Source of the DNA: a candidate division WWE3 bacterium
GTDB lineage: Bacteria; Patescibacteriota; WWE3; 2-01-FULL-39-13
Reading direction: 5' to 3'
Assembly: GCA_943354835.1 (NCBI GenBank)
Contig: CALRDH010000002.1
Location: 42,270-106,269, forward strand
Length of the DNA: 64,000 nucleotides
Shown: positions 11,798 to 37,930 of the stretch, in pieces
How the letters are laid out: every line of letters begins with the position of its first letter
How positions within the stretch are numbered: the stretch's first letter is position 1
Program-made: the position numbers and the translations under genes
The notes under the pieces: generated by a model
What the model was told of the DNA's origin: nothing
The model's database searches: none
What the model saw: the letters and a program-made list of their open reading frames with translations, nothing else

Positions 11798-14351
11798 ATT
11801 GGGAAGTATTTTCGTGTCTCTTATCCTTGTATTTACAGCGTTAGCGACTGTTGCAATTCTTCTCAAGATCAAGCGTACTCGAAGACTGCTAGAAACACCG
11901 CACACCTACCTTGAGGTAAAACCAACTGATAGAACTCTTAAAACAACACTTACCAACACGAAGCTTTTTGAAATTTTGCACTCTCTGGAAAAACCCTACA
12001 CTTGGTGGGATAAGCTATTGGGTTTTACTAAGCCTGTAAGCTACGAGCTTGTTTCAAGCAAGTACGAGGGTATTCGCTTTATTCTTCGGATTGCTACAGA
12101 AGACGCTTCAAGTATTAAAAAAACACTACTCGCATATCTACCTGGCATAGAGATTAAAAAAACAGACGACTACCTACCTAGTACTACCGACAAACCATAC
12201 GCAATTGAAGAACTAACCCTGAGTAATTCTTTTATTTATCCACTTTCAGAACAGCCACAATTACAGCAGTATGACCCGCTTGCGTATCTGACAGGGTACC
12301 TTACTAAGCTCAACGACTCAGAGCTTATTGCCCTGCAATTTATTTGTACTCCTGTACACACAGCAACGCACAAAAAAATCCTCCAGAAGATTGCAGATCT
12401 ACAGAAAAAAATCCTAAGTAACGAAAGTGCAGATCACATTCTTTCGAAGCATACAGGCTCAGACATCATCAGCTTGCTTGGAAGACTTCTGGCTTTTATC
12501 ATCCTCACCCCTGTAACACTGCTTTCTTGGGTTCTTGGTAACACAAGGCAAGTATTTCCAACTTGGCTTTTTGAAGCACCAATCACCAAACCACTACAAT
12601 CTGGACAAGCAAAAAATGACCTATTGCAAACGATATCCACTAAAATTAATCAGCCACTTTTTGAAGTCACCATTCGTGTGTACATCCAATCGGACACAAA
12701 ACCACAAGAACGATTCAAGGGTATTCTTGCGTCATTTGAATCCTTTGCCACACCGCACCAAACAATATATAGAAAGAAGACAGTCTTTACCTATATTCAC
12801 ACTCCACTGTTGCAAAAATTGCAGTATTTTCTTTTGCAAAACCGCCTGTCACTTTTCTCAAGCCCACTATTTTTATCCGCACTGGAATTAGCAGGTTTGT
12901 ATCATCTACCTCATGTGCTCAACACCAAAACTGAAGACTTACTGCAAGTCAAAAGCCCAAAACTTCCAGCGCCACTGTCTCTTAAAAAAAACAGATCAGA
13001 ATTTGACATATCGTTTGCCACAAATTCGTATGGAGAAACAATCACCCCAATTGGCGTGACTCTCGAGGAGCGTAGGCGACACACCTATATCATTGGTGCA
13101 ACAGGTACAGGTAAAACCACACTTTTATTACAGATGATTTACCAAGATATATGCAAGGGCAATGGTCTAGCAGTTATTGATCCACATGGAGACTTAGCAG
13201 AGCGGTTGATTGGAGTTATTCCAGAAGAGCGCGTCAAAGATGTTGTCTACTTTAACCCCTACGATATTGAATTTCCCATTGGTCTTAATGTACTTGAGAT
13301 TCCAGAAGGGCTTTCAGAAGTCGAGCTACAGCGAGAAAAGGACTTTATTACCTCAACACTCATATCTATCTTTCATAAACTGTATGACGCACGATATTCT
13401 GGGCCAAGAATGGAACACATCTTGCGCAATGTAATTTTAACGGCACTCGAGCAAGATAAGCCAACACTTTTTACTATCTATGATCTCTTAACCAACATGA
13501 ACTATCGCAAGCAGGTAACAAGCAAACTTACCGATGAAGTTCTGAAATCGTTCTGGAAAAATGAGTTTGAAAAGCTTGGTAGTTTTCAAAAGGCAGAGCA
13601 AATCTCACCTATCACCAATAAACTTGGCAGGTTTTTAACAACCAGCATGACGCGCAATATCTTGAACCAGAGCGAGAGCAAACTTGATTTTGAAGACATT
13701 ATGAATAACAAAAAGATCTTGATTTGCAACCTCTCAAAAGGAAAAATAGGAGAAGACACAGCCTACTTCCTTGGCGGGCTTTTTACTGCCAAAATACAGC
13801 TGACAGCACTAAGAAGAGTACATATAAAAGAATCAGAACGCCCAGACTTTTTCTTGTATATCGATGAGTTTCAGAATTTTGCCACCATGTCGTTTGCTCA
13901 AATTCTATCTGAGGCACGAAAGTATCGATTAAGCGTTATTCTGGCACATCAAAACACGGTACAGATTGAGCCTGACTTACTGGAAACAATTATCGGAAAT
14001 ACTGGTACGCTGATATGCTTTAGAACCACAAGTCCAAAAGATGAGGTCAAACTACTTCCAGTGTTTGCGCCAGAAGTTGAGATAGGGCAGATCCCAAACC
14101 TACCCTCATACAACTTTTATATGAAGATCAATGCGCTCCAACCTCAGGCAACCTTTAGTGGAGAGATTGAAAACTTTGTGATTGCAGATACTGAGCAAAT
14201 AAGGGCAGAAGTAATGACTCACTCACAGCAAACCTATGGAAACGAACGATCAACAATTACTCTTTCAAAGGAAACACAGAAAGAGAAAAAGACCCAAAAG
14301 ACTGTAAAAGAAGCTCCGAGTACTGAGAACTTTTTCGAGCAGGTGAAATAG
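11721..14351 (+). CDS. type IV secretion coupling protein-like ATPase (VirD4/TraG/TraD family, TraG-D_C type)
   Basis: N-terminal TM helix. Walker A IIGATGTGKTT, VIDPHGDL, Walker B FFLYIDEFQNF, and ARKYRLSVILAHQN. 876 aa. Confidence 0.75.
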   Translation: MLVYMEFSYFWQTYLTNPDPLILFGILGSIFVSLILVFTALATVAILLKIKRTRRLLETPHTYLEVKPTDRTLKTTLTNTKLFEILHSLEKPYTWWDKLLGFTKPVSYELVSSKYEGIRFILRIATEDASSIKKTLLAYLPGIEIKKTDDYLPSTTDKPYAIEELTLSNSFIYPLSEQPQLQQYDPLAYLTGYLTKLNDSELIALQFICTPVHTATHKKILQKIADLQKKILSNESADHILSKHTGSDIISLLGRLLAFIILTPVTLLSWVLGNTRQVFPTWLFEAPITKPLQSGQAKNDLLQTISTKINQPLFEVTIRVYIQSDTKPQERFKGILASFESFATPHQTIYRKKTVFTYIHTPLLQKLQYFLLQNRLSLFSSPLFLSALELAGLYHLPHVLNTKTEDLLQVKSPKLPAPLSLKKNRSEFDISFATNSYGETITPIGVTLEERRRHTYIIGATGTGKTTLLLQMIYQDICKGNGLAVIDPHGDLAERLIGVIPEERVKDVVYFNPYDIEFPIGLNVLEIPEGLSEVELQREKDFITSTLISIFHKLYDARYSGPRMEHILRNVILTALEQDKPTLFTIYDLLTNMNYRKQVTSKLTDEVLKSFWKNEFEKLGSFQKAEQISPITNKLGRFLTTSMTRNILNQSESKLDFEDIMNNKKILICNLSKGKIGEDTAYFLGGLFTAKIQLTALRRVHIKESERPDFFLYIDEFQNFATMSFAQILSEARKYRLSVILAHQNTVQIEPDLLETIIGNTGTLICFRTTSPKDEVKLLPVFAPEVEIGQIPNLPSYNFYMKINALQPQATFSGEIENFVIADTEQIRAEVMTHSQQTYGNERSTITLSKETQKEKKTQKTVKEAPSTENFFEQVK

Positions 14352-17013: not shown

Positions 17014-17694
17014 ATGCTACTACCTACAATTACTAATAAACAAAAAGAAATACTTCACTATCTCTATAGATTCAGATTCCTCAACCGTATTCAAATTCAA
17101 TCACTCCTCAATCACAAAGACCCAAAAAATACCAATGTCTGGCTCAAAGATCTTACAACCAAAAACTACACTGGCAAAATCTTCGAAAGAACACCGGGAA
17201 TAAATAAACCAGCACTGTATTACCTTACAAATAACGGAATCAAGTTTTTTAGCTCTGCCGAGGGAGCGGATAAGAAACGATTAAGAAAACTGTATCAAGA
17301 GAAAAGAAGATCTCAAGGCTTCATTGATCAGTGCGTACTCATTGCAGATATATACCTCAAGCTGAAAGCTCAAAATCTACAAGACTTCAAACTGTACACA
17401 CAAGCAGACTTGCCAACAAACTCAGTCATCCGTGATCTTTTACCAAGCTTTGCCTATGTCTACTCAAAAGATGCCAAACTACAGCATCACACTTGCGAGA
17501 TCATTAAAGACGGCACGCCACGGTTTGCCATTCGCTCAAGAATTAACCAATACATTGAGTTTTTTAAAGATCAACCAACCATGCAGATTGTGTTTGTCTG
17601 CCAGTCGCAAAAAATTCTTGCCTTTGTTCAAAAATTCATAGAAAAAATTTCTGAAGAAAGCGAATTGCAAAATATTCATGTAACAAATATATAA
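17014..17694 (+). CDS. replication-relaxation (Replic_Relax)-like protein; candidate DNA-processing protein of the element
   Basis: N-terminal KQKEILHYLYRFRFLNRIQIQSLL resembles PF13814. 226 aa. Assignment is tentative. Confidence 0.35.
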   Translation: MLLPTITNKQKEILHYLYRFRFLNRIQIQSLLNHKDPKNTNVWLKDLTTKNYTGKIFERTPGINKPALYYLTNNGIKFFSSAEGADKKRLRKLYQEKRRSQGFIDQCVLIADIYLKLKAQNLQDFKLYTQADLPTNSVIRDLLPSFAYVYSKDAKLQHHTCEIIKDGTPRFAIRSRINQYIEFFKDQPTMQIVFVCQSQKILAFVQKFIEKISEESELQNIHVTNI

Positions 17695-18640: not shown

Positions 18641-19057
18641 CTAAATCAGCTCATGCTCTTTAAAGCTATAGAACTCTTTATCAGTAAAAATGATGTGATC
18701 TATTACATCTGTTGAGAGTATCTTTCCAGCTTCACACAAGCGCTTAGTTATGCTTATGTCCTCATAAGACGGACTTGTTTCACCTGATGGATGATTATGG
18801 GCAAGTATTATTGCTGGAGTTCTCTTATGTATAACTCTTGTAAATACCTCTCTTGGATGCGCTAATGACTGTGTCAGAGTACCAACGCTAACCAAATCCA
18901 TAATTTTAATTTTGTTTCTAATATCCAGATGAAAAACAAAGAAGTGTTCTTTATCTTGATCAAAATCATCAAGTGTCAGAAAGTAAGCTTTTAACAGCTC
19001 AAATACACACTTAGGACTCGCTACAGATACTTTGGCATCTTGCAGTTTGATAATCAT
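18641..19057 (-). CDS. radC: RadC-like JAB/MPN domain protein
   Basis: HNHPSGETSPSYEDI is the JAMM motif (HxHx7Sx2D). 138 aa, C-terminal domain only. Confidence 0.8.
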   Translation of the reverse strand: MIIKLQDAKVSVASPKCVFELLKAYFLTLDDFDQDKEHFFVFHLDIRNKIKIMDLVSVGTLTQSLAHPREVFTRVIHKRTPAIILAHNHPSGETSPSYEDISITKRLCEAGKILSTDVIDHIIFTDKEFYSFKEHELI

Positions 19058-19446: not shown

Positions 19447-22400
19447 CTACCAATCTGTGTATGAATTCATTTGCTTTAGATATTGCATCTTGATTTTTGC
19501 TTCCTGTACCAACTTGATAACATTGCTTAATTCTTCTCCCCATGTAGGAACTCCCCAGCCTTTTTTGTCATTTTCAACCATGAGCTCTATGCTGGTAATA
19601 ACTTCCAAAGGATATTCGGGAGCGAGCGTAATAAATCTCTCAACTATAAGATGATCTCCTTCAATGTCACATCCGAGCTTCAAAACCTCAATTAGTTTTT
19701 CCAAGCTCCACTCGTTTTCAAACTTTTCAGAATACACCCACCAGCTAAAGTCTTTGAATTCCTGTATTTCAGCATGGACGTTTTTACCTGCTTTGATTTC
19801 TGTGAGTCTTTTCTCAGCAAGTGCGATAAACTTATCTTTTATTGGAACTGCCATCATTTCACCATTTTTTGCTGATCCTCCAATAAAGTCGATCACTTCT
19901 GCTCTCAACTCCAAAGGAGCAACATCATAAAAGTCTTTCAATAAATCTTTATCCAGAGGAATTTTTCCACGGCAGTAGAAGAGAATGAGATGCTGTGCGA
20001 GATTCTGTTCTGGGTTTTCTAAATGGTGTCTCCCGTCAGTATGCTTACCAATTTCTTCGACTGCTCTTTGATACTGCGGTATGAGCATAGGCATGAAATT
20101 GTCATAAGCAGTATTAAAAGTGATGAAAGTTTCCCATGCTGCATCAAAGTATTTTTGTTTTTCAGGATCATTAGGGAAAATGTCCTTTACATGTTCTTCT
20201 ACCCAAGTAGCATCTAGCCAAGCAAGGTTTCCAAGTCGTTCCCCATACAATGCTCGTATACCAACTGAGGGATCAATTTTTGTATCTAAATGGTCATTCA
20301 ACACCTTCAAAAGCTCTGGGGCATTTTTGTCTATGCTCCAATCTTTTCGTTTATCTTCAGGTACTGAACTCTTCAACCATATACCGTATCTGATGGCAGC
20401 CTGCATTGCGTCTCCTCGGGTAGAACTTATCGCAACTGTTAAAGGATCACGATCTGACTCTAGTTGCTTTGCTTCTTCCTCGGGGGTTGGGTTAGCGTCA
20501 TTTGTCAAAACTTCAATGATCTTCCAAACTTCTTCTTTCAATTCCTGAGGTATTTTTCCTTCCTCTGCATCCAATCCTTCTCTGAGCAATTCTGCAATTG
20601 CTTTCCTGCTCCAATTCCAATCAGGATCATCACCGTAAAAACCAGATAGCTTCCGGTCTTTTACTTCAATCGGCTTTGTCAAAATCGTTACTGAAAGGTC
20701 GAGTATTGGTTTCCAGTCAAAACTTTTATTTTGCCTTAATGCGTCACGATGACCAGTAAAAACAGAACGGACATACGTTGGATCTAAATCCATGAAAGAA
20801 GTAAGGCTCTGCGACCATTTAGCAGGGTCATTTGCTATTTGTGTCACCAAGGCTCTGCTTGTTCCTTCTCGTGAGATATCAAGGGGATCACCTTCTGTTG
20901 GTGGTTCCCATTTTTTAAGAAAATCCACCACTTCGCCAGGTTTCATATCTTTGAATTGTTCGTCAGATATACTGCTCTTATATCCCCAGCTTGATCCACC
21001 TGACCAAGAACGAAAGGAAGGGAATTCAGGTTCTCCAACTACAGACACTAGTTCTTCATAGTATTTTTTCCAATCAGGATCAGTTTCCTTGAAAGGCAGC
21101 AAGTGATACATCTGCCAATTTTTCTTATACTTTGCTACTTGTTCATCTGAGGGTTCTACACCATTCTCCTTGCATCTTGCCTTGTAGGCTTCCATGTCTA
21201 CTTCCACACCTTTCTCAATCCATGACCACAACTCTTTCCTTTGCGCTGTTGATAAAAGGGATGCGTGTGTTTCTGCAAGTAGGAAGTATTCGTGAGTAAG
21301 GCGCTTTTTATCTGCAAACTCCTCCTTGTTCATAAGAAGCTGCGTTATCTTCTTTTCAGAACCCTTTGGGAATAATCGCAGAAGATGCAATACAAGGCGC
21401 TGAAAGACGAGTAGCTTTCGTGGCTCCAATTCCGAAAGGAGTGCTTCTATTTGATCAGGATGGTTCGTAAGATATCTCTCGCAAGCATCTCTCATTCCTG
21501 TTACCAGCACGTCTTTAATGCCGTATTTATGGTTTTGAGAGTGGTCTTCAATGGCTGATCTCCATATCTCAGAGTAGTCATCTTTGGAACCACTTTCCCT
21601 GTCAACATCAGAGTGTTTTATGTAATTCTCATACTGATCGATAAGAACTTTGACTGCATCTATACCCGCAGCATCAACAAAATCAGGAAAATCCTTTTCG
21701 AGTATTTCTTCATAATCGTAATCTCTTATGAGAGGTATCGGATCGTGTGGGATCTTGTGTCCACCATATTCAGGAGCTGGACGAGGATCAGGTTGAATAG
21801 CAAGCACTCTATTGGCGAGTGTTACGGCTTCTTTTACTTTTCCATATAGAGCTAAATATTTGATGAGTTTTCCATATTTCTCAGGGCTCAAAAAATAGTC
21901 GATTTCATCAATACTTTCAACAATCTGAACAGACATTTCTACCGGAAGTAATAATGCTATTTCCAATAACTCAGTTCGTGCTCGTGTGTTTTCTGTTTCC
22001 ACATCAAGACATATGGCCAAGACCTCACTTTGCTTTTGAGGAATTACTGCCATCTTTTTCAAATACAAAGCTTGTGACCAAAAAGGGTAGCTGGTTCCTC
22101 CTTCTGGGTGCTCCATTGGAGGTGGTGGTATCTTGAAAAATCCCGCATCTTTTAGAAGGATCAACCAATTTGGATTATCCAACTTTTCAAAAAAATAATT
22201 GTAGGAAACTGGACTATTTGGCACCTTCTCTTTAAGTTTTTTGACATCATCTGTGGTAACTATTTTTAATTCAACCAACTGATCGAGAATTGCAAAAAAT
22301 CCTAAATACTTACCCTCCATTTTGTTTAAAACTGCATCAAGGATTATTTGGACACTTTCCCATAAGTCTTTGAAGGAATTGCTTCTGCTTGCAGGAAAAC

Positions 22401-22794
22401 CAAGGTTATTTCTATGAACAAAGTGGTATATAGCAATATCATCCTGTTTATTTGCAGTTCGCAACCATAAGCCTGCAATATCACTATCAGAATCTAAGTC
22501 ATAAGCTTCGAGTATTGCTTTAACCTTTTCCTTATGTGACTCTTCTTTCTTTTCACCCTCAGCAGACACTGCAAAGCCCTCTGGAAGTAACATATCAATA
22601 ACTGTTCCCATTACTTCTCTTAAACAGTGGGCAATCAGGTTGGTTTTTGAGTCTTTTGGTGGTTCCTCATCCCACATTCGACAAGCATCCTTAAAAAATC
22701 CAGCAGGGACATGTCCAATTTCCAAAAGTTTTTTGTGTATTCTTTCTTGTCTTGGATCGCTAAATTTAAAAACTTGGGGAGTTTTCGTATTCAT
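19447..22794 (-). CDS. 1115-aa hypothetical protein, translationally coupled downstream of hsdS; candidate defence-associated protein
   Basis: Long uninterrupted ORF. Its start overlaps the hsdS 3' end by 29 nt. Trp-rich, no P-loop, and it appears GC-richer than its surroundings. Confidence 0.55.
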   Translation of the reverse strand: MNTKTPQVFKFSDPRQERIHKKLLEIGHVPAGFFKDACRMWDEEPPKDSKTNLIAHCLREVMGTVIDMLLPEGFAVSAEGEKKEESHKEKVKAILEAYDLDSDSDIAGLWLRTANKQDDIAIYHFVHRNNLGFPASRSNSFKDLWESVQIILDAVLNKMEGKYLGFFAILDQLVELKIVTTDDVKKLKEKVPNSPVSYNYFFEKLDNPNWLILLKDAGFFKIPPPPMEHPEGGTSYPFWSQALYLKKMAVIPQKQSEVLAICLDVETENTRARTELLEIALLLPVEMSVQIVESIDEIDYFLSPEKYGKLIKYLALYGKVKEAVTLANRVLAIQPDPRPAPEYGGHKIPHDPIPLIRDYDYEEILEKDFPDFVDAAGIDAVKVLIDQYENYIKHSDVDRESGSKDDYSEIWRSAIEDHSQNHKYGIKDVLVTGMRDACERYLTNHPDQIEALLSELEPRKLLVFQRLVLHLLRLFPKGSEKKITQLLMNKEEFADKKRLTHEYFLLAETHASLLSTAQRKELWSWIEKGVEVDMEAYKARCKENGVEPSDEQVAKYKKNWQMYHLLPFKETDPDWKKYYEELVSVVGEPEFPSFRSWSGGSSWGYKSSISDEQFKDMKPGEVVDFLKKWEPPTEGDPLDISREGTSRALVTQIANDPAKWSQSLTSFMDLDPTYVRSVFTGHRDALRQNKSFDWKPILDLSVTILTKPIEVKDRKLSGFYGDDPDWNWSRKAIAELLREGLDAEEGKIPQELKEEVWKIIEVLTNDANPTPEEEAKQLESDRDPLTVAISSTRGDAMQAAIRYGIWLKSSVPEDKRKDWSIDKNAPELLKVLNDHLDTKIDPSVGIRALYGERLGNLAWLDATWVEEHVKDIFPNDPEKQKYFDAAWETFITFNTAYDNFMPMLIPQYQRAVEEIGKHTDGRHHLENPEQNLAQHLILFYCRGKIPLDKDLLKDFYDVAPLELRAEVIDFIGGSAKNGEMMAVPIKDKFIALAEKRLTEIKAGKNVHAEIQEFKDFSWWVYSEKFENEWSLEKLIEVLKLGCDIEGDHLIVERFITLAPEYPLEVITSIELMVENDKKGWGVPTWGEELSNVIKLVQEAKIKMQYLKQMNSYTDW

Positions 22795-23962
22795 AAGTTG
22801 CGTTGGTGCTTGGCAAAAACGATTTTTGCATTAATGCCTGAAATTGATTTTCCATCTCAGACGACTGAATCAACATTTTTTGTTTAATTGAAACTACTGA
22901 ATTGAATCTATTTACGAAATCTAATTGCTTAGTTATAGGTGGCAAAAGTATCGATAATTTATTTATTTTTCCCAAAAATAAATTTGCTTGACTTGATTGA
23001 TTCACACTTCGCATCATTTCTCTCTGAGAATAATCGGTTCTTAAAAAGTACTCTAAATATTTGGAGAGTATTAAACTTCTATTTGGCTTAATGAGAGCTG
23101 CACTTCTAACAAGTGTAAAAGGCTCGTCGATATCTATAGTTGTCACTCGACCTATCGTTCCAGAGCAAGATATTAATACATCACCCAATTCCGGATTACA
23201 TCTCTTTCGTATTCTCTCGTATTCCACTTCCCCGATATAATCTACACCAGCATTAAAATCTAAATATCCATTTTTAATATTTCTGGCAGATAATAATTTA
23301 ATTCCGTCTATTGTTCTAATCGGCGTAATATGCTCACCATCGGTCACCTTATCAGCAATTTCTTGAATAGTACATTTCTCATATTTGTGCGGATTCATAC
23401 CGGGATTTCCAAACATATCTAAAAAGACAGATTTTAAGTAGTCGTCGAGTAAATCTATTGCTTGCTTGCGTTTTTGGCGAAGTTCGTCTGCTTGATCAAG
23501 AAGTTTTACAATCCTTTTTTGTTCTTCGAGAGGATGTAAAACAAAGCTAAAATTTGAAAAGGTTGTTTTATTTACAATTGGAACTACAGCGCTATTGGCA
23601 ACTTGCTTTAACAAAGGTGCTAATGTTAATGCAAAATAGTACCCATATTTATAGTTAACTAATTTTGGATTAAATGTTAAAGAATTAATTTGCTGATTAG
23701 TGACTAAGTCACAACCCGCTATACCTACCTTGCCAAGAGATCCAATACAGGAAACCATTATAGAATTTTTTGGTATTAAATTAGCTTGTTTTGCTCCATC
23801 TGTTGTAAGATATTCTTCTGTTGAAGTAATTTCTACAGCACCTCCCAAATTTGGTGGTTTTACAAACGGAATAGTTCCATCGAGATAGTAAATGTTTGAC
23901 GATTTACTTGGTGTTTTTCCAGTAGTGACTTGAGCTATGTCTCCAAGCTTTACAATTCTCAT
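22766..23962 (-). CDS. hsdS: Type I restriction-modification specificity subunit HsdS
   Basis: Two target-recognition domains with conserved central and C-terminal coiled regions. It overlaps the hsdM stop. Confidence 0.8.
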   Translation of the reverse strand: MRIVKLGDIAQVTTGKTPSKSSNIYYLDGTIPFVKPPNLGGAVEITSTEEYLTTDGAKQANLIPKNSIMVSCIGSLGKVGIAGCDLVTNQQINSLTFNPKLVNYKYGYYFALTLAPLLKQVANSAVVPIVNKTTFSNFSFVLHPLEEQKRIVKLLDQADELRQKRKQAIDLLDDYLKSVFLDMFGNPGMNPHKYEKCTIQEIADKVTDGEHITPIRTIDGIKLLSARNIKNGYLDFNAGVDYIGEVEYERIRKRCNPELGDVLISCSGTIGRVTTIDIDEPFTLVRSAALIKPNRSLILSKYLEYFLRTDYSQREMMRSVNQSSQANLFLGKINKLSILLPPITKQLDFVNRFNSVVSIKQKMLIQSSEMENQFQALMQKSFLPSTNATYEYENSPSF

Positions 23963-24501
23963 TGTTTAATTTGTTTCAAAACTGAGATTCCATTTAATAT
24001 TTCTTGTTCCAATTTTTCAATCTTTTCTAAAATTACTTTTGGATCTTCGTATACAACTTCTTCATAATTACTTTCTTTATATCTATTAATACTCAAGTCA
24101 AATTTTGCATCTTCAATTTCCTTTTTAGGTACATAAAAAAACTTACTCCTTCTATCGTTTTCAGTAATTGCTTTTCTTGATTCCCATTTTTCTACGATAT
24201 CTGGAATATCGTTATCTTTAATCTTTGCACGCTTATCATCGAGACTGAAGCCATCCGCCTGCATGTCATAAAACCACACTTTTTCAGTTTCCCCACCTTT
24301 TACAAATATCAGAATTGCAGTGCTGACTCCTGCATATGGCTTAAATACACCACTTGGAAGAGAGATAACACCTTGCAACTCACAATCATTTAAAAGCATT
24401 TTTCGTGCCATTACATGCGCATTGCTCGAGCCAAAAAGCACACCATCAGGAACAATTACGCCAGCACGACCACCAATTTTAAGGGATTTAATAATCCTGT
24501 T

Positions 24502-25231
24502 GGGGCTAGTGAAGTTAAAGCGGTATAATGAATCGCAATGGCATCATCTATCAACCTAAATAGCTACTACAAACGTTCACGAATTTCCGAGCGTCAATTT
24601 CGAGTGTTTGTGAAGCATTTTTGCTTCGATGACACAGCTGAAAGAATTGCGAATGAAGTAGGTATTTCACGAAGAGCTACCATTACTTTGCTTGCAAAAA
24701 TGCGGAATAGGATACTCGAGTGGTGTGATGAAGAAGAACGACTGAGTGGCGAAATTGAAGTGGATGAGAGTTATTTTGGTGCCAGGAGAGTTCGAGGAAA
24801 ACGTGGGCGAGGCGCTTCTGGGAAAGTGCCAGTCATTGGTTTACTCAAGAGAAATGGCAAAGTCTACACGCAAGTAGTTCAAAACTGTTCTCGAGAACAA
24901 TTGCTGCCAATTATCCAAGGAAAAGTATTGTCTGAAAGCACAGTTTTTACTGACGCATGGCGCAGTTATGACAGTTTGATCTTACATGGGTATGATCACT
25001 ACCGAATCCACCACCATGAAAATGAGTTTTCTCGAGGAAAAAACCACATCAATGGCATTGAAAGTTTCTGGAGTTTTACCAAAGCCAGATTACTCAAGAT
25101 GAAAGGAGTGCGAAAAGACAAATTCGTGCTACACTTAAAGGAATCTGAGTTTCGTTGGAATTACCGAAAAAGTATGTACCAAGAAATTCTCAAAAGATTG
25201 AGGAAAATTCCGCTTTAACTTCACTAGCCCC
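24502..25231 (+). mobile_element. IS1595-family (IS1016-like) insertion sequence, 730 bp
   Basis: Perfect 22-bp terminal IRs (ggggctagtgaagttaaagcgg and ccgctttaacttcactagcccc). A 7-bp TSD, tcctgtt, sits at 24495-24501 and 25232-25238. Confidence 0.85.
24538..25218 (+). CDS. IS1595-family DDE transposase
   Basis: 226 aa. The N-terminal region is followed by a DDE_Tnp_IS1595-like core (VDESYFG...GYDHYRIHH). Confidence 0.75.
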   Translation: MASSINLNSYYKRSRISERQFRVFVKHFCFDDTAERIANEVGISRRATITLLAKMRNRILEWCDEEERLSGEIEVDESYFGARRVRGKRGRGASGKVPVIGLLKRNGKVYTQVVQNCSREQLLPIIQGKVLSESTVFTDAWRSYDSLILHGYDHYRIHHHENEFSRGKNHINGIESFWSFTKARLLKMKGVRKDKFVLHLKESEFRWNYRKSMYQEILKRLRKIPL

Positions 25232-26211
25232 TCCTGTTTATAAATAGAAGTTCTGTCTTGGTAGTAGGTAATGACAATGATTCGTTAATATCGCCTTTAT
25301 CAATACTCCCTTTAAATGGGGGATTGGCCATAATGACATCGAAATAATTATCTTCGTCATATTTTTTAGAAAGTGTATCTTTTTGCTCAATATTTGGTGA
25401 AGATATACCATGCATCATGAGGTTCATAAGTCCAATGCGCACCATACTATCGTCCATGTCGTAACCAAAAAAAGTATTTTCTTTTAACTGTTTCCACTGT
25501 CTTTCATCTGTTAGCTTATCGCCAAGTGTGCCTCTGGTAAGTCCGTTCTCATCTGTTTTTTGATGCTCTTTACTTGTGTGTTGAGTAAGAATGTGTTGAT
25601 ACGCCCCAAGCAAAAACCCACCAGTGCCACAGGCTGGATCACAAATGGTATCTCCAAGCTTTGGGTTTACTAGCTCACAAATAAGCTGAATGATATGTCT
25701 TGGAGTTCTAAACTGTCCAAGTTTGCCCGCACTTGTTATCTCTGCAAGCAAATGCTCGTATATATCTCCCTGTGTATCTTGAAATGCTTGTCCAGCATCT
25801 TGTTGTTTGGCGATATCCTCAAAAATCTCATCAATAATGCTAACTGCCTCAACAACAAGAGAGGGCTTAGAGATAATAAAAACGGCATTTCCCATGTGTT
25901 TAGAAAAGTTGCTGTTATCAGAGTTTAAATTCTTTAAAAAAGGGAAAACTTTTGTCTGAATATGAGTAAGCATTTCAGAGCCCTCCATATGTCTAAAATG
26001 ACTCCAACGCATTACTTCATTTTCGCCTGCAAAAATAGATTTATATGCTTCTCCCGTAAATTCTGAGTCCTGAACTTTTTTTAGATCCATCTGATCAAGT
26101 CGTTTCATGAAAAGAAGATATGAGATCTGCTCGATAGCAGTAAGTGGATTTGAAATACCACCGCTCCAAAATTTATCCCAAAGTCTATCTATGGATGATT
26201 TGATTGTTGTA

Positions 26212-29022
26212 TTAAGCATAAGCAAATATTTGTTCTGTAAATTGTAAAATTTCTCGTTGCATATGTTTATCAAATAACCCTAAAAATCCATTTTCATGAA
26301 TTTTGGTGAATGGCTCTTGTACGAGGTCTTTTTTATTGAGTGCTCCATTCTCGATGATAAAGGTTTGCAAAGTAGTCAAAAACTGAATTTGCTTTGCAGT
26401 AAGGGTGTTATGTGTTGCAATAAATGTTGCAAAAGCTTCTGTGACTTTTTCAGGAAAAGTTACAAGTTCACCAATCCCCATGATGTATTTAATAAGATCA
26501 AGAAAGCCAACTTTTCTAGCATCATACGCTTTTTGTAAGTTTTCTTCTGTAGGATACGGATCGTATTCAGACAGTGCTTCTGCAAGATCTTCAATTTCTT
26601 CTGCAGTTATACTTTCTCCCTGTTTAATTTTCTGTAGTGTTTCATTTTCTTCTTCTAGTTTTTTGACAAGAGCCTCAACTTTTTCTCTATATTTTTGAAT
26701 GGTGATTCTTTCATTAGAAGGACCAAACTTGATGTACATTTTTTCTGAAGTGACATCTTTTAAGTTGAAAGAGTCTTGCTTTGGCTTAATTCCCTCGTCT
26801 CGATACTTCATGAGAGGACATATCTTCTCGATGACTATATTTAGTTCATCTTCACCAGCGTTTGATAGATATCCTCCGTTTAGTATGGCCTCAATTAACG
26901 CTTCTTGCTTTGCAACGATATTAACGGTTAGTGGAAGGTCAGAGACTATTTCAATCAGTGCTTCTCCTGTTGTTGCAAGCTTCTTCTCATCCCTTTCATC
27001 TCCTTGCAACTTGATGATAGAGTAGCGAATCACTTTTATCTCAAAACTCATTGCTTTGTAGTCTTCACCTGTTCGAGTTCTCATTAGTGGCGCAATCTCC
27101 TTGAGAAGGAAATCTTTTTTATCTTGAGTGAGTCGTTGCCAAAAAGATTCATTTACTTGCGCAAGGAGTTCTTTATTGTCCAAAATAACTACATTATTTT
27201 GTGGAAGTTTTGCAATTTCTTGCTGTAATTTTGCAATACAATCAGCAACGACTGCTTCATTTCCTACATTTTGTGCAAGCTCAAGTTTTTCAAGTCGTGC
27301 TTCAAAAAGTCGTACTGGCATAGGTTTTGTAGGTCTATCAATCTTCCCCGTTGGATTCATCTGAAAGTATTCAAAATTCTCCCAGCAGTCCATGATTAAA
27401 AACTTATCCTTTTTCTTGCACCAAGGTTTGATTTTCTTAGCTTCAAGTAAGCGTGTGCCACGTCCAATCATTTGCCAAAACTTTGTATACGAAAAAACAG
27501 GCTTAGCAAACACCAGATTCACAAGCTCTCGAATATCAATGCCTGTATCAAGCATGTCTACGCTTATGGCAATTCTTGGAAAATCATTATTTATAAATTG
27601 ATCAAGCAAACCACCCTTGCCATAAACCCTAGAATCATCCGACACAATTACTTTGGCTAAATTTCCCTTATGTTCTGGGTACAGATCATCAAAAACTTCT
27701 TGCAATCTTCTGGCATGTTTCATGGTCATAGCAAAAAAGATTGATTTTCCCGGTAATGTACCGCTTTCATCCTTGATAGATTCTTCCATGAATTCTTGTA
27801 CTATAAGAGCGTTTGTTCCTTTGTTTGTTACCTTTTTTTCAATATCCGTACCCTCATAATTAATTTCCTCTGGTTCTTTGCCATCAGCTAATAATTTTTG
27901 TTGTTCCCCAACAGAAATATTATCTTTACGAATACCTTCTTTTTGAAATTTTGTTCTTATCTTCAAAACTTCGTAATCACTAAGATATGGGGGGATATTA
28001 TTTATAGCTTCCTCGTAGGAGTAAGCAAAAGTAGGCAATCCATCCTCACATTCAAAAAGCCCAAAAGTATTATGTTCTACTGCATCTTTAGGAGTAGCTG
28101 TTAATCCTAGCTGTATGGAATCAAAATAATCAAATATGTTTTTATATACATTGTAGATCGATCTGTGACTTTCATCGGCAATTATTAGATCAAAGAAGTG
28201 GGGGCTTAATGGACAATCTTCTTTCTCAATAATATTGAGCATTGTTGGATATGTCGCGGAGTAAACTCGTCTATCGGTTTGAATATCAGTCTCACCAATT
28301 TTTGGCCAGATTGGTGCATTAGGTAAATACTCTTTAAACGCATCTAGTGCCTGATTGCGAAGAGCAATTCTATCGACTAAAAATAATACTTTTTGAATTC
28401 TATTTGCTCGCATCAGCACATCAATCATCGACACGGCGGTTCTTGTCTTACCAGTACCCGTAGCCATTACTAAAAGAGCTTTCCTTTTGCCTTTATCTAA
28501 GGTCTCAAATACTGATCTAATTGCCTCAATTTGATACGGTCGTCCAGAAATCTCTCTATTAATTAGTTCTTGAGATAATGGCTTTTCATTTTTTCTTTGA
28601 AAAAGAAGTCTTTCTAAATCTTTTTTACTTGGAAAGCCATGAACTTTTCTAGGTGGCGACTTTTCTGTATCCCAAAAGTAAATGTCATGTCCATTCGTAT
28701 AAAAAACAAACGGCATTTCTTTACCAGAATTTTTTTGAATATTAACTGCGTACTGTTTAGCTTGTTCTTGACCAACTCGAGCATCTCTAGAAGTCTTTTT
28801 TGCTTCTACTACTGCAAGAGGATACCCATCATCACCTAGTAGAACATAATCTGCATACTGAAACCCTTGGTGTTCATGTTCTGGCTCAGTAATACCTTCA
28901 GGCAAACCTACCCAAATATCCAACTCTGAAGTTACCTGTGAAGGATTACCAATGTCCCAACCAGCTTTTAACAGCCGTTTATCAATTATTTCTTGTCTTG
29001 TTTTTGCTTCTGTAGGACTCAT
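26212..29022 (-). CDS. hsdR: Type I restriction enzyme R subunit HsdR
   Basis: Walker A LLVMATGTGKT, the DEAH-box IIADESHRS, helicase C motifs, 936 aa. Confidence 0.85.
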   Translation of the reverse strand: MSPTEAKTRQEIIDKRLLKAGWDIGNPSQVTSELDIWVGLPEGITEPEHEHQGFQYADYVLLGDDGYPLAVVEAKKTSRDARVGQEQAKQYAVNIQKNSGKEMPFVFYTNGHDIYFWDTEKSPPRKVHGFPSKKDLERLLFQRKNEKPLSQELINREISGRPYQIEAIRSVFETLDKGKRKALLVMATGTGKTRTAVSMIDVLMRANRIQKVLFLVDRIALRNQALDAFKEYLPNAPIWPKIGETDIQTDRRVYSATYPTMLNIIEKEDCPLSPHFFDLIIADESHRSIYNVYKNIFDYFDSIQLGLTATPKDAVEHNTFGLFECEDGLPTFAYSYEEAINNIPPYLSDYEVLKIRTKFQKEGIRKDNISVGEQQKLLADGKEPEEINYEGTDIEKKVTNKGTNALIVQEFMEESIKDESGTLPGKSIFFAMTMKHARRLQEVFDDLYPEHKGNLAKVIVSDDSRVYGKGGLLDQFINNDFPRIAISVDMLDTGIDIRELVNLVFAKPVFSYTKFWQMIGRGTRLLEAKKIKPWCKKKDKFLIMDCWENFEYFQMNPTGKIDRPTKPMPVRLFEARLEKLELAQNVGNEAVVADCIAKLQQEIAKLPQNNVVILDNKELLAQVNESFWQRLTQDKKDFLLKEIAPLMRTRTGEDYKAMSFEIKVIRYSIIKLQGDERDEKKLATTGEALIEIVSDLPLTVNIVAKQEALIEAILNGGYLSNAGEDELNIVIEKICPLMKYRDEGIKPKQDSFNLKDVTSEKMYIKFGPSNERITIQKYREKVEALVKKLEEENETLQKIKQGESITAEEIEDLAEALSEYDPYPTEENLQKAYDARKVGFLDLIKYIMGIGELVTFPEKVTEAFATFIATHNTLTAKQIQFLTTLQTFIIENGALNKKDLVQEPFTKIHENGFLGLFDKHMQREILQFTEQIFAYA

Positions 29023-29259: not shown

Positions 29260-29544
29260 ATGGGCAACAATATTCCAGGATACGACAGCGCGCAACCTAT
29301 TCAGTTCGCCAACTTAGACAGTCTGCTATGGGGTGTTGTAAAAACTCTCCAGTATTTTTCACTTCCAGTTATGGCTCTTTCAATTGCAGCACTTGGCATT
29401 GCGTTAATCGCTAGTGGTGATGACACAGAGAGAAAATCCAGACTCAAAGGATGGATATTTAATATATTGATTGGTGGTCTTTTAGTCTTTGGGTCAGCCA
29501 GTATAGCAAGTATTCTTAAACAATTTGTTGGTGGCACAAACTAA
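29260..29544 (+). CDS. VirB2/TrbC pilin-like small membrane protein
   Basis: A 94-aa protein with two hydrophobic helices. It is the first gene of the VirB4 operon. Confidence 0.45.
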   Translation: MGNNIPGYDSAQPIQFANLDSLLWGVVKTLQYFSLPVMALSIAALGIALIASGDDTERKSRLKGWIFNILIGGLLVFGSASIASILKQFVGGTN

Positions 29545-31316: not shown

Positions 31317-32103
31317 AGACGACATACGAACACATATCTTGCGGAGCCTATTTTTTACCGATACGGCTATCGTTTCTGCTGGCATTGTTTTTATATCGGT
31401 TGGCATTTACCTTATTTTTGTCTACGGCTTTCATTTTTTCGATTGGGGGTATTATCTCTCAACACTCTTTGTTGCCATCATCTTTTTTATTGCATTTGTC
31501 AGTCAGAAAATCGACAACCAACCAATTTTTAAAATTGTCCCACGAGCAACTACTTTTTCGACATCTACAAAAGAACTGCGGGTAACAAATATAGATCCGT
31601 ACTTTACTGATTTTCATATTCAAGATGATCTGATTGTCCGCAAAGACAAACTTATTCGAGTCTATGAAATCGAGCCATTCGATATTGCGCTACTCAACGA
31701 ACAAGACCGTGAGCACTTTTTTATTAGACTAAAACAGGCTATTCATGTACTACCAGCGCAAACACAGTTTATTGTGCGAAAGGTACCAGCAAAAAGTAGT
31801 GACTACTCAAAGCACTTCTTTTCTCTCTATGATGATTCGTCTTCTGATCGAGAATCACTCGTGCATGAATATATTGAGAATCTAACCAAACTTGTTGATA
31901 CCAGTTCATTTTTTATTACCAAACACTTTGCAGTACTTTCAGTAAGCTGTACAACACACAAACCACAAGCAGTTGTTGAGGGGGTAAAAAAACTAAACGA
32001 TAGTAGCTCACGACTTACTGCATCTTTGGTAGTGTGCAATATTTCTACAAAACCCGTGATTAATGAAGAGTTGAAACAATTTGTTAGGAGTATTTTACGA
32101 TGA
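31294..32103 (+). CDS. VirB3-like / small T4SS membrane component
   Basis: Two adjacent TM helices near the N-terminus. Its stop overlaps the VirB4 start. Confidence 0.35.
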   Translation: MRNIRIYKDDIRTHILRSLFFTDTAIVSAGIVFISVGIYLIFVYGFHFFDWGYYLSTLFVAIIFFIAFVSQKIDNQPIFKIVPRATTFSTSTKELRVTNIDPYFTDFHIQDDLIVRKDKLIRVYEIEPFDIALLNEQDREHFFIRLKQAIHVLPAQTQFIVRKVPAKSSDYSKHFFSLYDDSSSDRESLVHEYIENLTKLVDTSSFFITKHFAVLSVSCTTHKPQAVVEGVKKLNDSSSRLTASLVVCNISTKPVINEELKQFVRSILR

Positions 32104-34202
32104 TCAAACATTCTATAAAAACCAGCATGCGCACACTACTACAAAATATTCGGAACTTTAGTCTCACCTTTACACTAAAAGATCAAGTTGACTCTCTTAG
32201 CCACGAAAGAGATGTCTATACCGAAGAATTGATTGCTATAAAAAAAGAAACAGACCTACTTAAAACTCGAAATGAGGGTTTAAAGAAACTCGAAGAACAA
32301 GTATTGCAGTCTGCACAATCTACAACAGAAAAGGCACTCAAGGAAGAAATTAAACGACTTATGGAAGTGGTGTCATCTCAGGCTGAAACAATAGAAAAAC
32401 AGCCATTTTTAGGCCATACAGTAGCTAAGATTGCCAAGCCAACACAAGCAAAAAGCAGAACTCCACTTGGGTTTATAAAAAGCTACTTTGCCTTTAAAAA
32501 GGAGCTTAAAGCTTATGAGAAAAAAATCTTGCATGATGCAAAAGAGAAATTTCACTTAGTAGTTGAGAAACGAGATGAAACTATACACATTGATAGAGCA
32601 ACTGAAAGTTCATATAAAAGTGAATATATTGTTGAACACAGTAATTATCTTGATGTGAATGGCAAAGTTAAACGGTTATATTACCTTGCCGATATTCCAG
32701 CGTACCTCAGTCCCTATGTATTTTTCCGTCTTCTGACTTCTTCATTGCCATTTACACTCAGTATTTTTATTGAACCTGCCTCAAGTACTGAACTGCTCAA
32801 AAAGGCACGACAAAGATTGTCTGTTCTTGAAATGCAACAGAATGAAAGACTCAGATCTGGAAAAATACGAGACCAACAAATTGATAAAAATATTGATGAA
32901 GTCATGAGTTTTATAGATGAACTAGTGCACGAGGCAGAAAAAGGTATTGTCTATTCCCTCTATCTACAACTTGAAGCAGATACGCCAAAAGAACTAGAGG
33001 CACTACATAAAGAGCTTCAAAATATTGCGGGAAGCATGGATTTAACATTCAATCAATACACCTTTGGTCAAAAACAAGCGTTCAAAAACTTTTTACCATT
33101 TGCTCAAGATCATGTGCAGGAAAATAGAATTTTACAATCAACTGCAGTCTCATACTTAATGCCGTTTGTTTCAAAACATCTGAATGACCCTGACGGTATA
33201 TTTATGGGGCTGAATGCTTATAACGACTCGCTCATATTTATGGATCCGTTCACCTCAAGGAATAATAATATCAACATCTTTGGTGTATCTGGATCGGGGA
33301 AAAGTGTGACTTCAAAAGTATTGATGAACAGACTGTATATGAGAGGTGTCCAAATTTTAGCAATTGATCCAGAAGGCGAATATGTAAACCTTGCAAAATC
33401 GCTCGGTGGAGAGGTGATTCAGTTTTCCAGAGAAAATGGTATCAATCCTTTTCATATCAACAGCACCAGAGAAAACGATATTCTCGATCACATCTCGACA
33501 CTCAAAACATTCTTTAAGTTTTTTATTCCTCAAGATCACTACGATGGAGCTGTGCTTGATGAACATTTAATTACACTCTATGACTCTAGTACACCAAACT
33601 TTGAAAACTTACTAGAACTATTGGGCACACACCCTATGGCAAAAGATTTAAGCGTGTTGTCTACTGGAAGCTTGCGAGGAATATTTAATTCAAAGCGAAA
33701 ACTAGAACTAGATAATAATTTCATTGTTTTTGATCTGCATGACCTCAAAAAAGACGAGAAGCGTGAGCCTGCCATGTACCTTTTGACTTCACTTATCTGG
33801 AATCTGATCAATATACAAAATGGCAAAAAGCGCATGCTTTTTATTGATGAAGCCCACAAACTACTCGTTGATCCAGAGGTTGCAGTTTTCTATAGAGAAC
33901 TAGTCAAGCAAGCACGAAAAAGAAACACGGGAGTTGTCTCAATTACTCAGGATGTTGAGGACTTTTTACATAACGACTACGGCAAGGCGATTATCACAAA
34001 CTCTGAAACTAAGATTTTGCTAAAACAATCCTATGCTGCATTATCTGAAATAGGGACAATCTACCCTATGACTGATGAAGAAAAGCAACAACTCGGGCAT
34101 CTGGGCATTGGTGAAGTAATTCTTTTTAGAGAAGCAGAGCACCTACGACTCAATACGATTGTACTTCCATTTGAGAAACCACTTGTTTTTACCAGTGATT
34201 AA
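32100..34202 (+). CDS. virB4: VirB4/TrbE/TcpF-family type IV secretion ATPase
   Basis: Walker A IFGVSGSGKSVT, AIDPEGEY, Walker B LFIDEAHKLL, and ITQD. 700 aa. Confidence 0.85.
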   Translation: MIKHSIKTSMRTLLQNIRNFSLTFTLKDQVDSLSHERDVYTEELIAIKKETDLLKTRNEGLKKLEEQVLQSAQSTTEKALKEEIKRLMEVVSSQAETIEKQPFLGHTVAKIAKPTQAKSRTPLGFIKSYFAFKKELKAYEKKILHDAKEKFHLVVEKRDETIHIDRATESSYKSEYIVEHSNYLDVNGKVKRLYYLADIPAYLSPYVFFRLLTSSLPFTLSIFIEPASSTELLKKARQRLSVLEMQQNERLRSGKIRDQQIDKNIDEVMSFIDELVHEAEKGIVYSLYLQLEADTPKELEALHKELQNIAGSMDLTFNQYTFGQKQAFKNFLPFAQDHVQENRILQSTAVSYLMPFVSKHLNDPDGIFMGLNAYNDSLIFMDPFTSRNNNINIFGVSGSGKSVTSKVLMNRLYMRGVQILAIDPEGEYVNLAKSLGGEVIQFSRENGINPFHINSTRENDILDHISTLKTFFKFFIPQDHYDGAVLDEHLITLYDSSTPNFENLLELLGTHPMAKDLSVLSTGSLRGIFNSKRKLELDNNFIVFDLHDLKKDEKREPAMYLLTSLIWNLINIQNGKKRMLFIDEAHKLLVDPEVAVFYRELVKQARKRNTGVVSITQDVEDFLHNDYGKAIITNSETKILLKQSYAALSEIGTIYPMTDEEKQQLGHLGIGEVILFREAEHLRLNTIVLPFEKPLVFTSD

Positions 34203-34208
34203 TACAGT

Positions 34209-34976
34209 ATGAAAGCACTCGGTTACGCACATGCTTTTAAAAAGCTCAAAGAAGACCCATTCGGAGTTGCTGTTGATGCTCTGATTACTGTTGTGGTGCA
34301 TATATTTTCGCCACTTCCTATACCCGGCGCACTTGTGGCGCAGTTTAAAGTTCCTATTCTTGGATTTTTAGCGTCTCTAGCTATTTTATTCTTCTTCATG
34401 ATTATGCTTGTTGGTACAGTTTTTATGTCGCCACTGATTGTCAGCTCTGGATACTGGACAGAATTTATTTCACATTTTCAGGATCAAGAGGGAGAATATC
34501 AATCTGATTCTGGATTTACTCAAACACAAATTCCAAAACAAAGCCCACTCGGAGGATCAGGGATGAATTTTGTCACAGTAACTGCTTATTTTTTAGATCC
34601 AAGTTATTATCTGCAATTTGGAAGAAATCATACAGGTATTGATCTTGTTCCATCAGATTCTTACTATCAAAATAGCCAAGCATACAAAGACACGGGTGAA
34701 GTAGTAACCTTTGCAACAATTAATGGAAATGTCCGCTACTACATTGACCAATATGGCGGGAATACCGTTGAAATCACTAGTGATAACGGCTCAATTCAAG
34801 TACTTTACATCCATTTTAGTAGAGTTTTGGTTCAATCTGGTAAGGTAACGGCGGGCACTCCGATTGGAATTATGGGAGATACGGGTAATGCGACAGGTGA
34901 ACATGTACACTATGAAGTACGCACTAAAAATGGTAATAACTGGCAGGCGGTAAATCCGTTAAACTATATAGAGTAA
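34209..34976 (+). CDS. M23/LytM peptidoglycan endopeptidase; T4SS-associated cell-wall hydrolase
   Basis: HTGIDL, and GTPIGIMGDTGNATGEHVHYEV with the HxH zinc site. It has an N-terminal TM region. Confidence 0.8.
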   Translation: MKALGYAHAFKKLKEDPFGVAVDALITVVVHIFSPLPIPGALVAQFKVPILGFLASLAILFFFMIMLVGTVFMSPLIVSSGYWTEFISHFQDQEGEYQSDSGFTQTQIPKQSPLGGSGMNFVTVTAYFLDPSYYLQFGRNHTGIDLVPSDSYYQNSQAYKDTGEVVTFATINGNVRYYIDQYGGNTVEITSDNGSIQVLYIHFSRVLVQSGKVTAGTPIGIMGDTGNATGEHVHYEVRTKNGNNWQAVNPLNYIE

Positions 34977-36754: not shown

Positions 36755-37930
36755 TTACGATATTTGTTTAAAAATTTTTTCAAGACTTTTCCATGACACA
36801 AGTGTATTGTTTTTTACTTTTTGGTTGTCTTCCCCACTATAAACAACATATCCTTCTGACTTGTCATCTACATTCTCTCTCCAATAATTTACTCCGTTGA
36901 AAAATTCGTTCCTAAAAGTACTCGATGACTTGATTTCAATTGGGATTGTACTATTGCCCGTGTCAATAATTAGGTCTATTTCATTCCCATGACTGTCACG
37001 AAAAAAGTAAATTGAAGCTGATTTTGATGAATTATTTATATATTTAACAAATTCACTAACCGCAAAATTTTCAAAAATATTGCCAATGGCGTAATGTGAT
37101 GACAACTCAGTGACCGAGGAGATATTTAGTAAATTGCATAGCAACCCCGAATCATAAAAATATATTTTTGCTGACTTAATAACTCTTTTACCGATATTTT
37201 TATAATATGGTTTGAGTCTAAATACAATATAACTTGCTTCAAGTATAGAAATCCAATCCTCTGCAGTATTTGGTGAGATCCCTACATCTGTTGCCAAAGA
37301 TGCAACATTTAACACCTGCCCAACTCTGCCTGATAGTAAAACTAATAAATTTCTAAATTTAGAAAGACTGCTTATGTTTTTAATTAATCTAGCATCTCTT
37401 TCGACATATGTCGCGGTATACTGGTTATAGTAGTCAGATGAAGTAACATCCCTTGTGTATAGTGCAGGATAAAATCCGAAAATAATTTGCTCAAATACAT
37501 TTCTAGTCAATAACCCATTGTTCTTGAGTTCAAGCAGACTGAATGGCAAAATTGTTTGATATGCAGCTCTTCCAGCTAATGATTGTGAGACTTGCTCTGA
37601 AATAAGCAAGTTTTGAGATCCACTGATAATTACACTCCCCATTTGATTTTCACTATCAACTAATACTTGAATATAAGAGAGTAACTCCGGTAATCTCTGA
37701 ATTTCATCAATTATTATCTTGCTTTTGTTTAACGCAAAGAATCCTTGTATATCAGCTTCAATTAGTCCTCTCGTTTGCGGGTTTTCAAGGTTGAAGTATT
37801 TGTAATTTTTAAAATGGTGTTGTAAAAATGTTGTTTTGCCAGATTGCCTTGGTCCAGTAACAGATATTACAGGAAATCCTTTTTGTAATTTCTTTATTTG
37901 ATTTTCTATTTGTCTTTGGTAGTATTCCAT
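36755..37930 (-). CDS. AAA-family ATPase with a DUF4143 C-terminal domain
   Basis: Walker A GPRQSGKTT. The C-terminal is IFENFAVSEF...EIDLII. 391 aa. Confidence 0.75.
   Translation of the reverse strand: MEYYQRQIENQIKKLQKGFPVISVTGPRQSGKTTFLQHHFKNYKYFNLENPQTRGLIEADIQGFFALNKSKIIIDEIQRLPELLSYIQVLVDSENQMGSVIISGSQNLLISEQVSQSLAGRAAYQTILPFSLLELKNNGLLTRNVFEQIIFGFYPALYTRDVTSSDYYNQYTATYVERDARLIKNISSLSKFRNLLVLLSGRVGQVLNVASLATDVGISPNTAEDWISILEASYIVFRLKPYYKNIGKRVIKSAKIYFYDSGLLCNLLNISSVTELSSHYAIGNIFENFAVSEFVKYINNSSKSASIYFFRDSHGNEIDLIIDTGNSTIPIEIKSSSTFRNEFFNGVNYWRENVDDKSEGYVVYSGEDNQKVKNNTLVSWKSLEKIFKQIS

Follow-up and report, generated by a model that had tools for sequence, protein, structure and literature searches.

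An IS1016-type insertion sequence interrupts hsdM in the type I restriction-modification operon of a WWE3 bacterium

Introduction

Has a type I restriction-modification (R-M) system of a bacterium from the Candidate Phyla Radiation (CPR) been switched off by an insertion sequence (IS) and, if so, did this happen recently? This question is raised by a stretch of 64,000 nt from a candidate division WWE3 bacterium (positions 42,270 to 106,269 of contig CALRDH010000002.1, assembly GCA_943354835.1; hereafter, the window), in which the methyltransferase gene hsdM of an hsdR-hsdM-hsdS operon is split by a short element. The initial annotation of the window had assigned this element to the IS1595 family and had proposed that the insertion was recent and that the R-M system, itself carried by a mobile element, was probably inactivated as a unit. 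The analysis described here indicates that an IS of the IS1016 subgroup very probably transposed into codons 328-330 of hsdM, within a type I R-M operon borne by an island that resembles an integrative and conjugative element (ICE), and that the system is expected to be off.

The element is a complete insertion sequence

The left and right terminal inverted repeats (IRL and IRR) match at 22 of 22 positions, with the identity stopping at position 23, and the direct repeat TCCTGTT borders each end. Both features, as well as the length of 730 bp, are exactly as described initially (coordinates of all features are given in Table 1). When up to three mismatches were allowed, the 22-bp motif was present at only two sites in the window, compared with an expectation of 0 derived from 100 shuffles, and a 7/7 match at a fixed position would occur by chance with a probability of about 1.1e-4. 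The target site duplication (TSD) is not extendable on either side. An alternative reading with an 8-bp TSD was dropped because, given the boundaries of the inverted repeats (IRs), the repeat cannot grow in either direction. The layout is compact and typical of very small IS elements, with the stop codon of the transposase gene located inside IRR and a TATAAT hexamer, as read from the sequence, directly following IRL (24524-24529). With a GC content of 41%, the element exceeds the window (35%), in keeping with a foreign origin.

The single open reading frame (ORF) of the element encodes a protein of 226 aa that matches the complete DDE_Tnp_IS1595 profile (PF12762, positions 1-153 of 153) with 107.6 bits (cut-off 27) and the NCBIfam model "IS1595 family transposase" (NF033547) with 161.3 bits (cut-off 75). 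Thus, the assignment to the IS1595 family stands, and the layout of one ORF, exact 22-bp IRs, and a 7-bp TSD is that of this family. As far as can be judged from size, TSD length, the lack of a zinc finger, and the catalytic signature, the assignment narrows to the IS1016 subgroup. Members of this subgroup are about 700-745 bp in size. Their direct repeats are 7-9 bp long, and ISApl4 measures 712 bp (PMC12561309); the window element, with 730 bp and 7 bp, falls within this range. The IS1016 subgroup lacks the N-terminal zinc-finger domain, unlike all other IS1595 subgroups (PMC8101967). In the transposase of the window element, no match to the zinc finger Zn_Tnp_IS1595 (PF12760) was detected at E<=0.01, and only two cysteines (C29 and C63) are present N-terminal of the catalytic domain. 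The published IS1016 signature is E-DESYFG(53)VYTD----Y(24)HINGIENFWSQAK(14)LFIKECEFRFN (PMC12561309). Its counterparts here are DESYFG (76-81), VFTDAWRSY (136-144), HINGIESFW (170-178), and ESEFRWN (202-208), with spacings of 54/25/15, each larger by one than the published value, probably due to a counting convention. A second ORF of 226 codons in the window (17014-17694), considered as another copy of the transposase gene, turned out to be unrelated in sequence and encodes a Replic_Relax protein.

Removal of the element restores hsdM

In silico deletion of positions 24502-25238, that is, the element together with one copy of the repeat, yielded a continuous minus-strand ORF of 1524 nt that encodes 507 aa. 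By comparison, the frame was shifted when the element was deleted without one repeat copy, which is what a target duplication predicts. Across the empty site, the restored gene reads ...TTTATAAACAGGATTATTAAA... and the encoded protein ...ELLFINRIIKSLKIGGRAGVIVPDGVLF..., the latter in agreement with the junction given in the initial annotation. The identification of the split gene as hsdM also held, because the restored protein contains the HsdM_N and N6_Mtase domains, along with motif I (DPACGTGGF, residues 194-202) and motif IV (NPPF, residues 299-302). The originally assigned gene interval required an adjustment: translation starts from the ATG at 26219 (MLNTTIK..., a start shared by all homologues) instead of the upstream TTG at 26273, and the protein consists of 507 residues instead of about 510.

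Two intact proteins, 505 and 507 aa in length, share 93% and 92% identity, respectively, with the restored HsdM over its full length, and the junction peptide, ELLFINRIIKSLKIGGRAG, is invariant across the eight intact homologues that were aligned. The alignment to the solved structure 5ybb is unbroken over residues 26-503, and the site of the break is inside that region. In addition, at two homologous loci (L086 and L087), an uninterrupted hsdM has the same neighbors as in the window, namely, TrbC, the 580-aa protein, and hsdR.

The operon is of the type I configuration, with the domains ResIII, HSDR_N, and EcoEI_R_C in HsdR, HsdM_N and N6_Mtase in HsdM, and two Methylase_S domains in HsdS, and with PADLOC matches to REase_I, MTase_I, and Specificity_I. 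With regard to a named sub-family (EcoAI/EcoEI-like, type IB), HsdR scored best against PRK11448 and EcoAI/FtnUII, with about 285 bits and below the respective cut-offs of 729 and 550, and the EcoEI_R_C domain is present. HsdR and HsdS are both intact, and hsdM is split after codon 329.

Expected effect on the restriction-modification system

A DDE transposase would have cut the target with a 7-bp stagger, and the subsequent repair would have generated the duplication of TCCTGTT. The insertion splits the HsdM sequence midway through the catalytic domain, such that the N-terminal product ends after 329 residues and two foreign ones and the other 178 lack a start at the junction. In its present form, the frame of the 5' fragment (ORF 25224-26219) enters IRR and ends with TAG, specifying 329 native residues followed by RG. 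There is no start codon at the junction of the 3' fragment, and its longest internal ORF comprises 160 aa, starting from a GTG at 24441. In type I enzymes, HsdM is part of the M2S1 core that is required for both methylation and restriction. Because both activities need this core, the loss of HsdM would be expected to turn off the whole type I system, and the proposed inactivation as a unit follows soundly from the biology of type I R-M.

Such a conclusion would fail if the two HsdM fragments reassembled as a split methyltransferase or if the 331-aa fragment sufficed on its own. Split methyltransferases exist in nature, and, in the window, both motifs (I and IV) are still present in the N-terminal fragment, the 160-aa ORF starting with GTG spans most of the C-terminal part, and hsdR and hsdS are intact. 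The position of the break argues to the contrary: it is inside the catalytic fold, within a block that is 100% conserved across the homologues (TELLFINRIIKSLKIGGRAG), and residues 330-347 would be missing from any product of a restart. Moreover, the region preceding the 3' fragment harbors no promoter or ribosome-binding signal above chance. We therefore consider it very unlikely that the R-M system has escaped silencing, and loss of function through disruption of HsdM is the interpretation followed below.

The effect might extend to the downstream genes. The IS is oriented antisense to the operon and breaks the translational coupling of its genes, so that reduced expression of hsdS and of the ORF that follows it, a Dsr1-like gene, through polarity is plausible. 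A scan for promoters and terminators around the element returned nothing above the shuffled expectation, including the outward-facing candidate at 24554-24525. No structured RNA was detected at E<=0.1 in an Rfam scan of both strands between 19 and 30 kb.

Relatives of the element are mobile and widespread

The transposase belongs to a very large family, with no fewer than 7,998 clusters at E<1e-10; most of these proteins are 221-229 aa long, and the close relatives also consist of 226 aa. A scan of one genome per species identified 542 relatives. Both ends were definable for 68 of these, and the statistics on size, ends, and TSDs cover this set. Sizes range from 702 to 773 bp, with 64 of the 68 elements between 730 and 754 bp, mostly 730-739 bp. 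The consensus of the IS1016 IRs begins with GGGgctg, and the IR of the window element with GGGGCTAG; all the relatives begin with GG(G/C), and the majority with GGG(G/T)CT. The insertion sites differ between the relatives, and TSDs of 7 bp (19 loci) and 8 bp (31 loci) were observed, with none at 17 loci. Several complete long-read genomes contain multiple copies that have identical ends and occupy different sites. Thus, this IS group is mobile.

The labelled hosts of the relatives include Patescibacteria, several proteobacterial classes, Verrucomicrobiota, Planctomycetota, Nitrospirota, and one bin of Woesearchaeota. The latter, assigned to Candidatus Woesearchaeota (DPANN), contains a 738-bp relative with 54% amino acid identity and an 8-bp TSD (L027), which may reflect the presence of the IS group across domains or else a binning error. 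The labels of some other hosts may be unreliable as well: L007-L010 and L016 derive from metagenome-assembled genomes labelled Gammaproteobacteria or Pseudomonadales, and their isolate names (e.g., HK-STAS-PATE-17) hint at Patescibacteria, which makes the host range of the closest relatives uncertain.

The closest relatives of the window element are L007 and the P0123 copies (L100-L107), with 92% amino acid identity and about 86% DNA identity over a gapless alignment of 730 bp. These elements are also 730 bp long, and their IR is the same except for one base (GGGGCTAGTAAAGTTAAAGCGG). They differ from the window element in their hosts and sites, and by 13-14% in their DNA; L007, in particular, is inserted at a different site, with a 7-bp TSD. 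By the usual ISfinder naming thresholds, a divergence of 13-14% makes a different IS. The copy in L100-L107, 86.6% identical to the window element, has perfect IRs and no TSD and is located beside an IS1595-family element that contains a zinc ribbon. The exact 22-bp IR was found on 12 more metagenome contigs, in elements 72-87% identical to the window copy or in truncated relics. Only the right end, 151-514 bp in length, is left of the relics L094/L095, L098, and L088/L091, which keep the exact 22-bp IR at that end.

Among named elements, the transposases of ISEc69 and ISEc75 are 39-40% identical to that of the window. The best match on annotated plasmids, with 54% amino acid identity, is a Francisella element labelled "IS1595 family transposase." This match was tried as a basis for naming and proved ambiguous, as the literature lists both ISFtu3 (ISHpaI-IS1016) and ISFtu6 (IS1595 family). 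Judging from its intact ORF and ends, the window element appears to be functional, and it extends a known IS subgroup by a new element that has no name so far.

Reality and age of the insertion

For sampling of the locus, exact-protein lookups of the transposase and HsdS were made, yielding six public contigs. The insertion is present in each of the six, and their identity to the window is 99.99% or higher. Hence, they represent one strain that was sampled repeatedly and contribute no independent information on the history of the site.

The same contigs do bear on whether the insertion exists at all. Copies of IS elements often break or confuse metagenome assemblies, and many of the relatives are located on contigs of about 1 kb, so that a short-read assembler might have misplaced a repeated IS into a gene that is intact in the organism. 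What speaks against such an artefact is that assemblies made independently (ENA megahit, Logan, and the NCBI contig of 443 kb) from at least three samples contain identical junctions, at 99.99-100% identity. A clean 7-bp TSD combined with frame-exact restoration is the signature of real transposition, and no other copy of this IS variant was found that the assembler could have confused. An error of assembly is accordingly considered extremely improbable, and the insertion is treated as real.

In the initial annotation, the perfect IRs and the TSD were taken to imply a recent event. This is the weaker link of the initial interpretation. Perfect IRs are no evidence of youth because relatives that have diverged by about 14% (L007 and L100) still keep 22/22 IRs; the intact TSD is a better, though weak, indication of a recent insertion. 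Further features that weakly favor a recent event are that the restored hsdM contains neither a further lesion nor an excess of private substitutions and that the transposase, hsdR, and hsdS are intact.

The opposite possibility is that the insertion is old and fixed, in a cluster of long-dead pseudogenes that has not visibly decayed. Such an age would fit the occupied site in all six contigs that contain this HsdS or transposase, with no empty allele found, the divergence of 13-14% in DNA from the nearest other IS copy, and the retention of perfect IRs in diverged relatives. Yet the two copies of the TSD are identical, and the 1524 nt of hsdM are free of stop codons and frameshifts. The reconstructed HsdM has four private substitutions, all conservative, no more than in intact relatives (one to six in the close ones). 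Intact reading frames for HsdR, HsdS, and the transposase also weigh against a long-dead locus, and "fixed" means little for six contigs that are effectively one strain. An old, fixed insertion is not favored and is regarded as unlikely.

Three observations weigh against the account favored here, that is, transposition of a functional IS into hsdM with loss of the R-M system. First, a sibling copy with more than 87% DNA identity, as might attest to recent activity of this copy, was not found in any collection searched. Second, no isogenic allele with an empty site was found; L086 and L087 are only homologous, with 83% DNA identity at the site, and the state before the insertion is for this reason inferred from homologues. 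Third, the target TCCTGTT is atypical, with 57% AT compared with a mean A+T content of 91% over 51 TSDs of the IS group; the sequence around it is AT-rich.

Given that precise excision would restore the gene exactly, by virtue of the TSD and the perfect ends, the element might also serve as a reversible on/off switch of defense. As a rule, however, IS elements of the DDE type seldom excise precisely, and the transposase does not drive such excision. In addition, no contig with an empty site was present in any sample looked at, and nothing in the element points to a dedicated excision mechanism. A switch of this kind is thus highly improbable.

Finally, the knockout could have been selected rather than accidental, by removing a barrier to incoming DNA for the ICE itself or for a CPR host that lives as an episymbiont and scavenges DNA, or by acting, through precise excision, as a rarely reversible switch. 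Selection would account for the finding of no other allele in several samples while the surrounding genes stay intact. If so, a whole defense operon of the ICE-like island, consisting of the type I R-M system and a co-transcribed Dsr1-like gene lacking SIR2, would have been silenced. We consider selection for the knockout distinctly unlikely.

Comparison with known elements and cases

The window element shares most of its traits with IS1016 of Haemophilus and ISApl4 of Actinobacillus pleuropneumoniae. It is similarly small (712 bp in ISApl4 versus 730 bp), and a single transposase ORF occupies the length of the element and terminates within the right IR, as in the IS1016 subgroup. The conserved order DESYFG ... 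V(Y/F)TD....Y ... HINGIE.FW ... E.EFR(F/W)N, a TSD within 7-9 bp, and the lack of a zinc finger are also common to both. The differences from the annotated members of IS1016 are the distant sequence, the CPR (WWE3) host, and the less AT-rich target. IS1016 has been reported to be the closest prokaryotic relative of the eukaryotic Merlin DNA transposons (PMC8101967). These, too, combine a DDE_Tnp_IS1595 catalytic domain with the absence of a zinc-ribbon domain, but they are eukaryotic and larger, with TSDs of 8-9 bp and longer terminal IRs, so that only a distant family link exists.

A precedent for the loss of a type I R-M system via disruption of hsdM (FTT1171c), associated with IS elements or rearrangements, comes from type B strains of Francisella tularensis, whose genome contains active IS elements (PMC2682660). 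In comparison, the present case consists of a single, clean, and fully reconstructible insertion, and it concerns a system on an ICE-like island in an uncultured CPR bacterium. The IS knockout of a defense gene described here is real but ordinary: IS insertions or IS-associated loss of hsd genes, as well as IS1016-type elements, were already known. What the locus adds is a record that a WWE3 (CPR) genome contains an IS1016-type element in intact form as well as an ICE-like island, together with a clean, reconstructible instance of a defense system apparently inactivated by an IS. It leaves the current understanding of IS elements and R-M systems unchallenged and matters little beyond annotation. 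In annotation, the two N6_Mtase fragments, along with hsdR and hsdS, should be labelled as a type I system that is disabled and should not count as active defense, and the element is eligible for registration as a new IS.

Genomic context of the operon

The claim that the R-M operon is located on a mobile element holds in the form of a chromosomal ICE-like island, with genes for a serine recombinase, a type IV coupling protein, Replic_Relax, TrbC, and a VirB4-like ATPase (Table 1). The candidate island spans approximately 8.4-36 kb of the window. Housekeeping genes (aminoacyl-tRNA synthetases, a penicillin-binding protein, phosphoglucomutase, and MsrAB) are located at the ends of the window, and the 443-kb contig that carries them also contains hsdR and the transposase gene.

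Table 1. Coordinates of the insertion sequence, the interrupted operon, and genes of the ICE-like island in the window
Feature	Positions	Strand	Description
Complete IS, IS1595 family, IS1016 subgroup	24502-25231	+	IRs and TSD; size and ends like those of relatives
IRL	24502-24523	+	GGGGCTAGTGAAGTTAAAGCGG; exact reverse complement of IRR
IRR	25210-25231	-	exact reverse complement of IRL; contains transposase stop TAA (25216-25218)
TSD, left copy	24495-24501		TCCTGTT; AACAGGA in hsdM sense (codons N328, R329, first base of I330)
TSD, right copy	25232-25238		TCCTGTT
Transposase gene	24538-25218	+	226 aa, intact, without zinc finger; PF12762, NF033547, catalytic signature
hsdM, 5' fragment	25232-26219	-	residues 1-329 (HsdM_N, motifs I and IV); PADLOC MTase_I profile 2-310 of 491
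hsdM, 3' fragment	23959-24501	-	residues 328/330-507 (rest of catalytic domain, C-terminal helical region); MTase_I profile 330-488 of 491
hsdR	26212-29022	-	936 aa, intact; stop overlaps hsdM start (ATGCTTAA); 85.7% identical end to end to HsdR of L086
hsdS	22766-23962	-	398 aa, full length; two Methylase_S domains; start overlaps hsdM stop (ATGA)
Dsr1-like ORF	19447-22794	-	1115 aa; start overlaps hsdS end by 29 nt; PADLOC Dsr1, E=1e-51
tRNA-Glu	8377-8453		
Large serine recombinase	8396-9961		3' end of ORF overlaps tRNA-Glu
Type IV coupling protein (T4CP)	11721-14351		TrwB/TraG-like
Replic_Relax	17014-17694		226 aa
RadC	18641-19057		
TrbC	29260-29544		
580-aa membrane protein			in island; syntenic in L086/L087
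VirB4/TraG-like ATPase	32100-34202		
M23 peptidase	34209-34976		

The overlap between the start of the Dsr1-like ORF and the end of hsdS makes it probable that this ORF is co-transcribed with the type I R-M genes. Its match is confined to positions 309-1210 of the 1227-position Dsr1 profile, so that it covers the body and leaves out the SIR2 part at the N-terminus; the first 183 or so residues have no Pfam match, and the NCBIfam Dsr1 model scores 40 bits against a cut-off of 1400. The product may thus be a Dsr1-like defense protein with a different effector domain.

At the intact homologous loci, an additional gene for a 466-aa AAA_15/AAA_21 ATPase is present between hsdM and hsdS (L086, 7319-8719; L087, 4536-5936). 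This ATPase has no tblastn match in the window. The large ORF downstream of hsdS also differs (866+ aa and 2142 aa). The cargo at this position of the mobile element appears to be variable.

The restored HsdM shows unusual conservation, with 81-93% amino acid identity to proteins from genomes that are labelled as different CPR lineages (Gottesmanbacteria, Dojkabacteria, and Falkowbacteria). The threonyl-tRNA synthetase of the host, which places it in candidate division WWE3, is only 82% identical to that of its nearest named relative, a WWE3 genome, and its other named matches are from Patescibacteria. The conservation of HsdM as opposed to the divergence of the synthetase suggests that CPR bacteria have recently exchanged the R-M or ICE module by horizontal transfer. 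An AAA_14/DUF4143 ATPase encoded on the minus strand (36755-37930), close to the island on its right side, matches the PADLOC candidate defense family PDC-S01 (E=1e-99).

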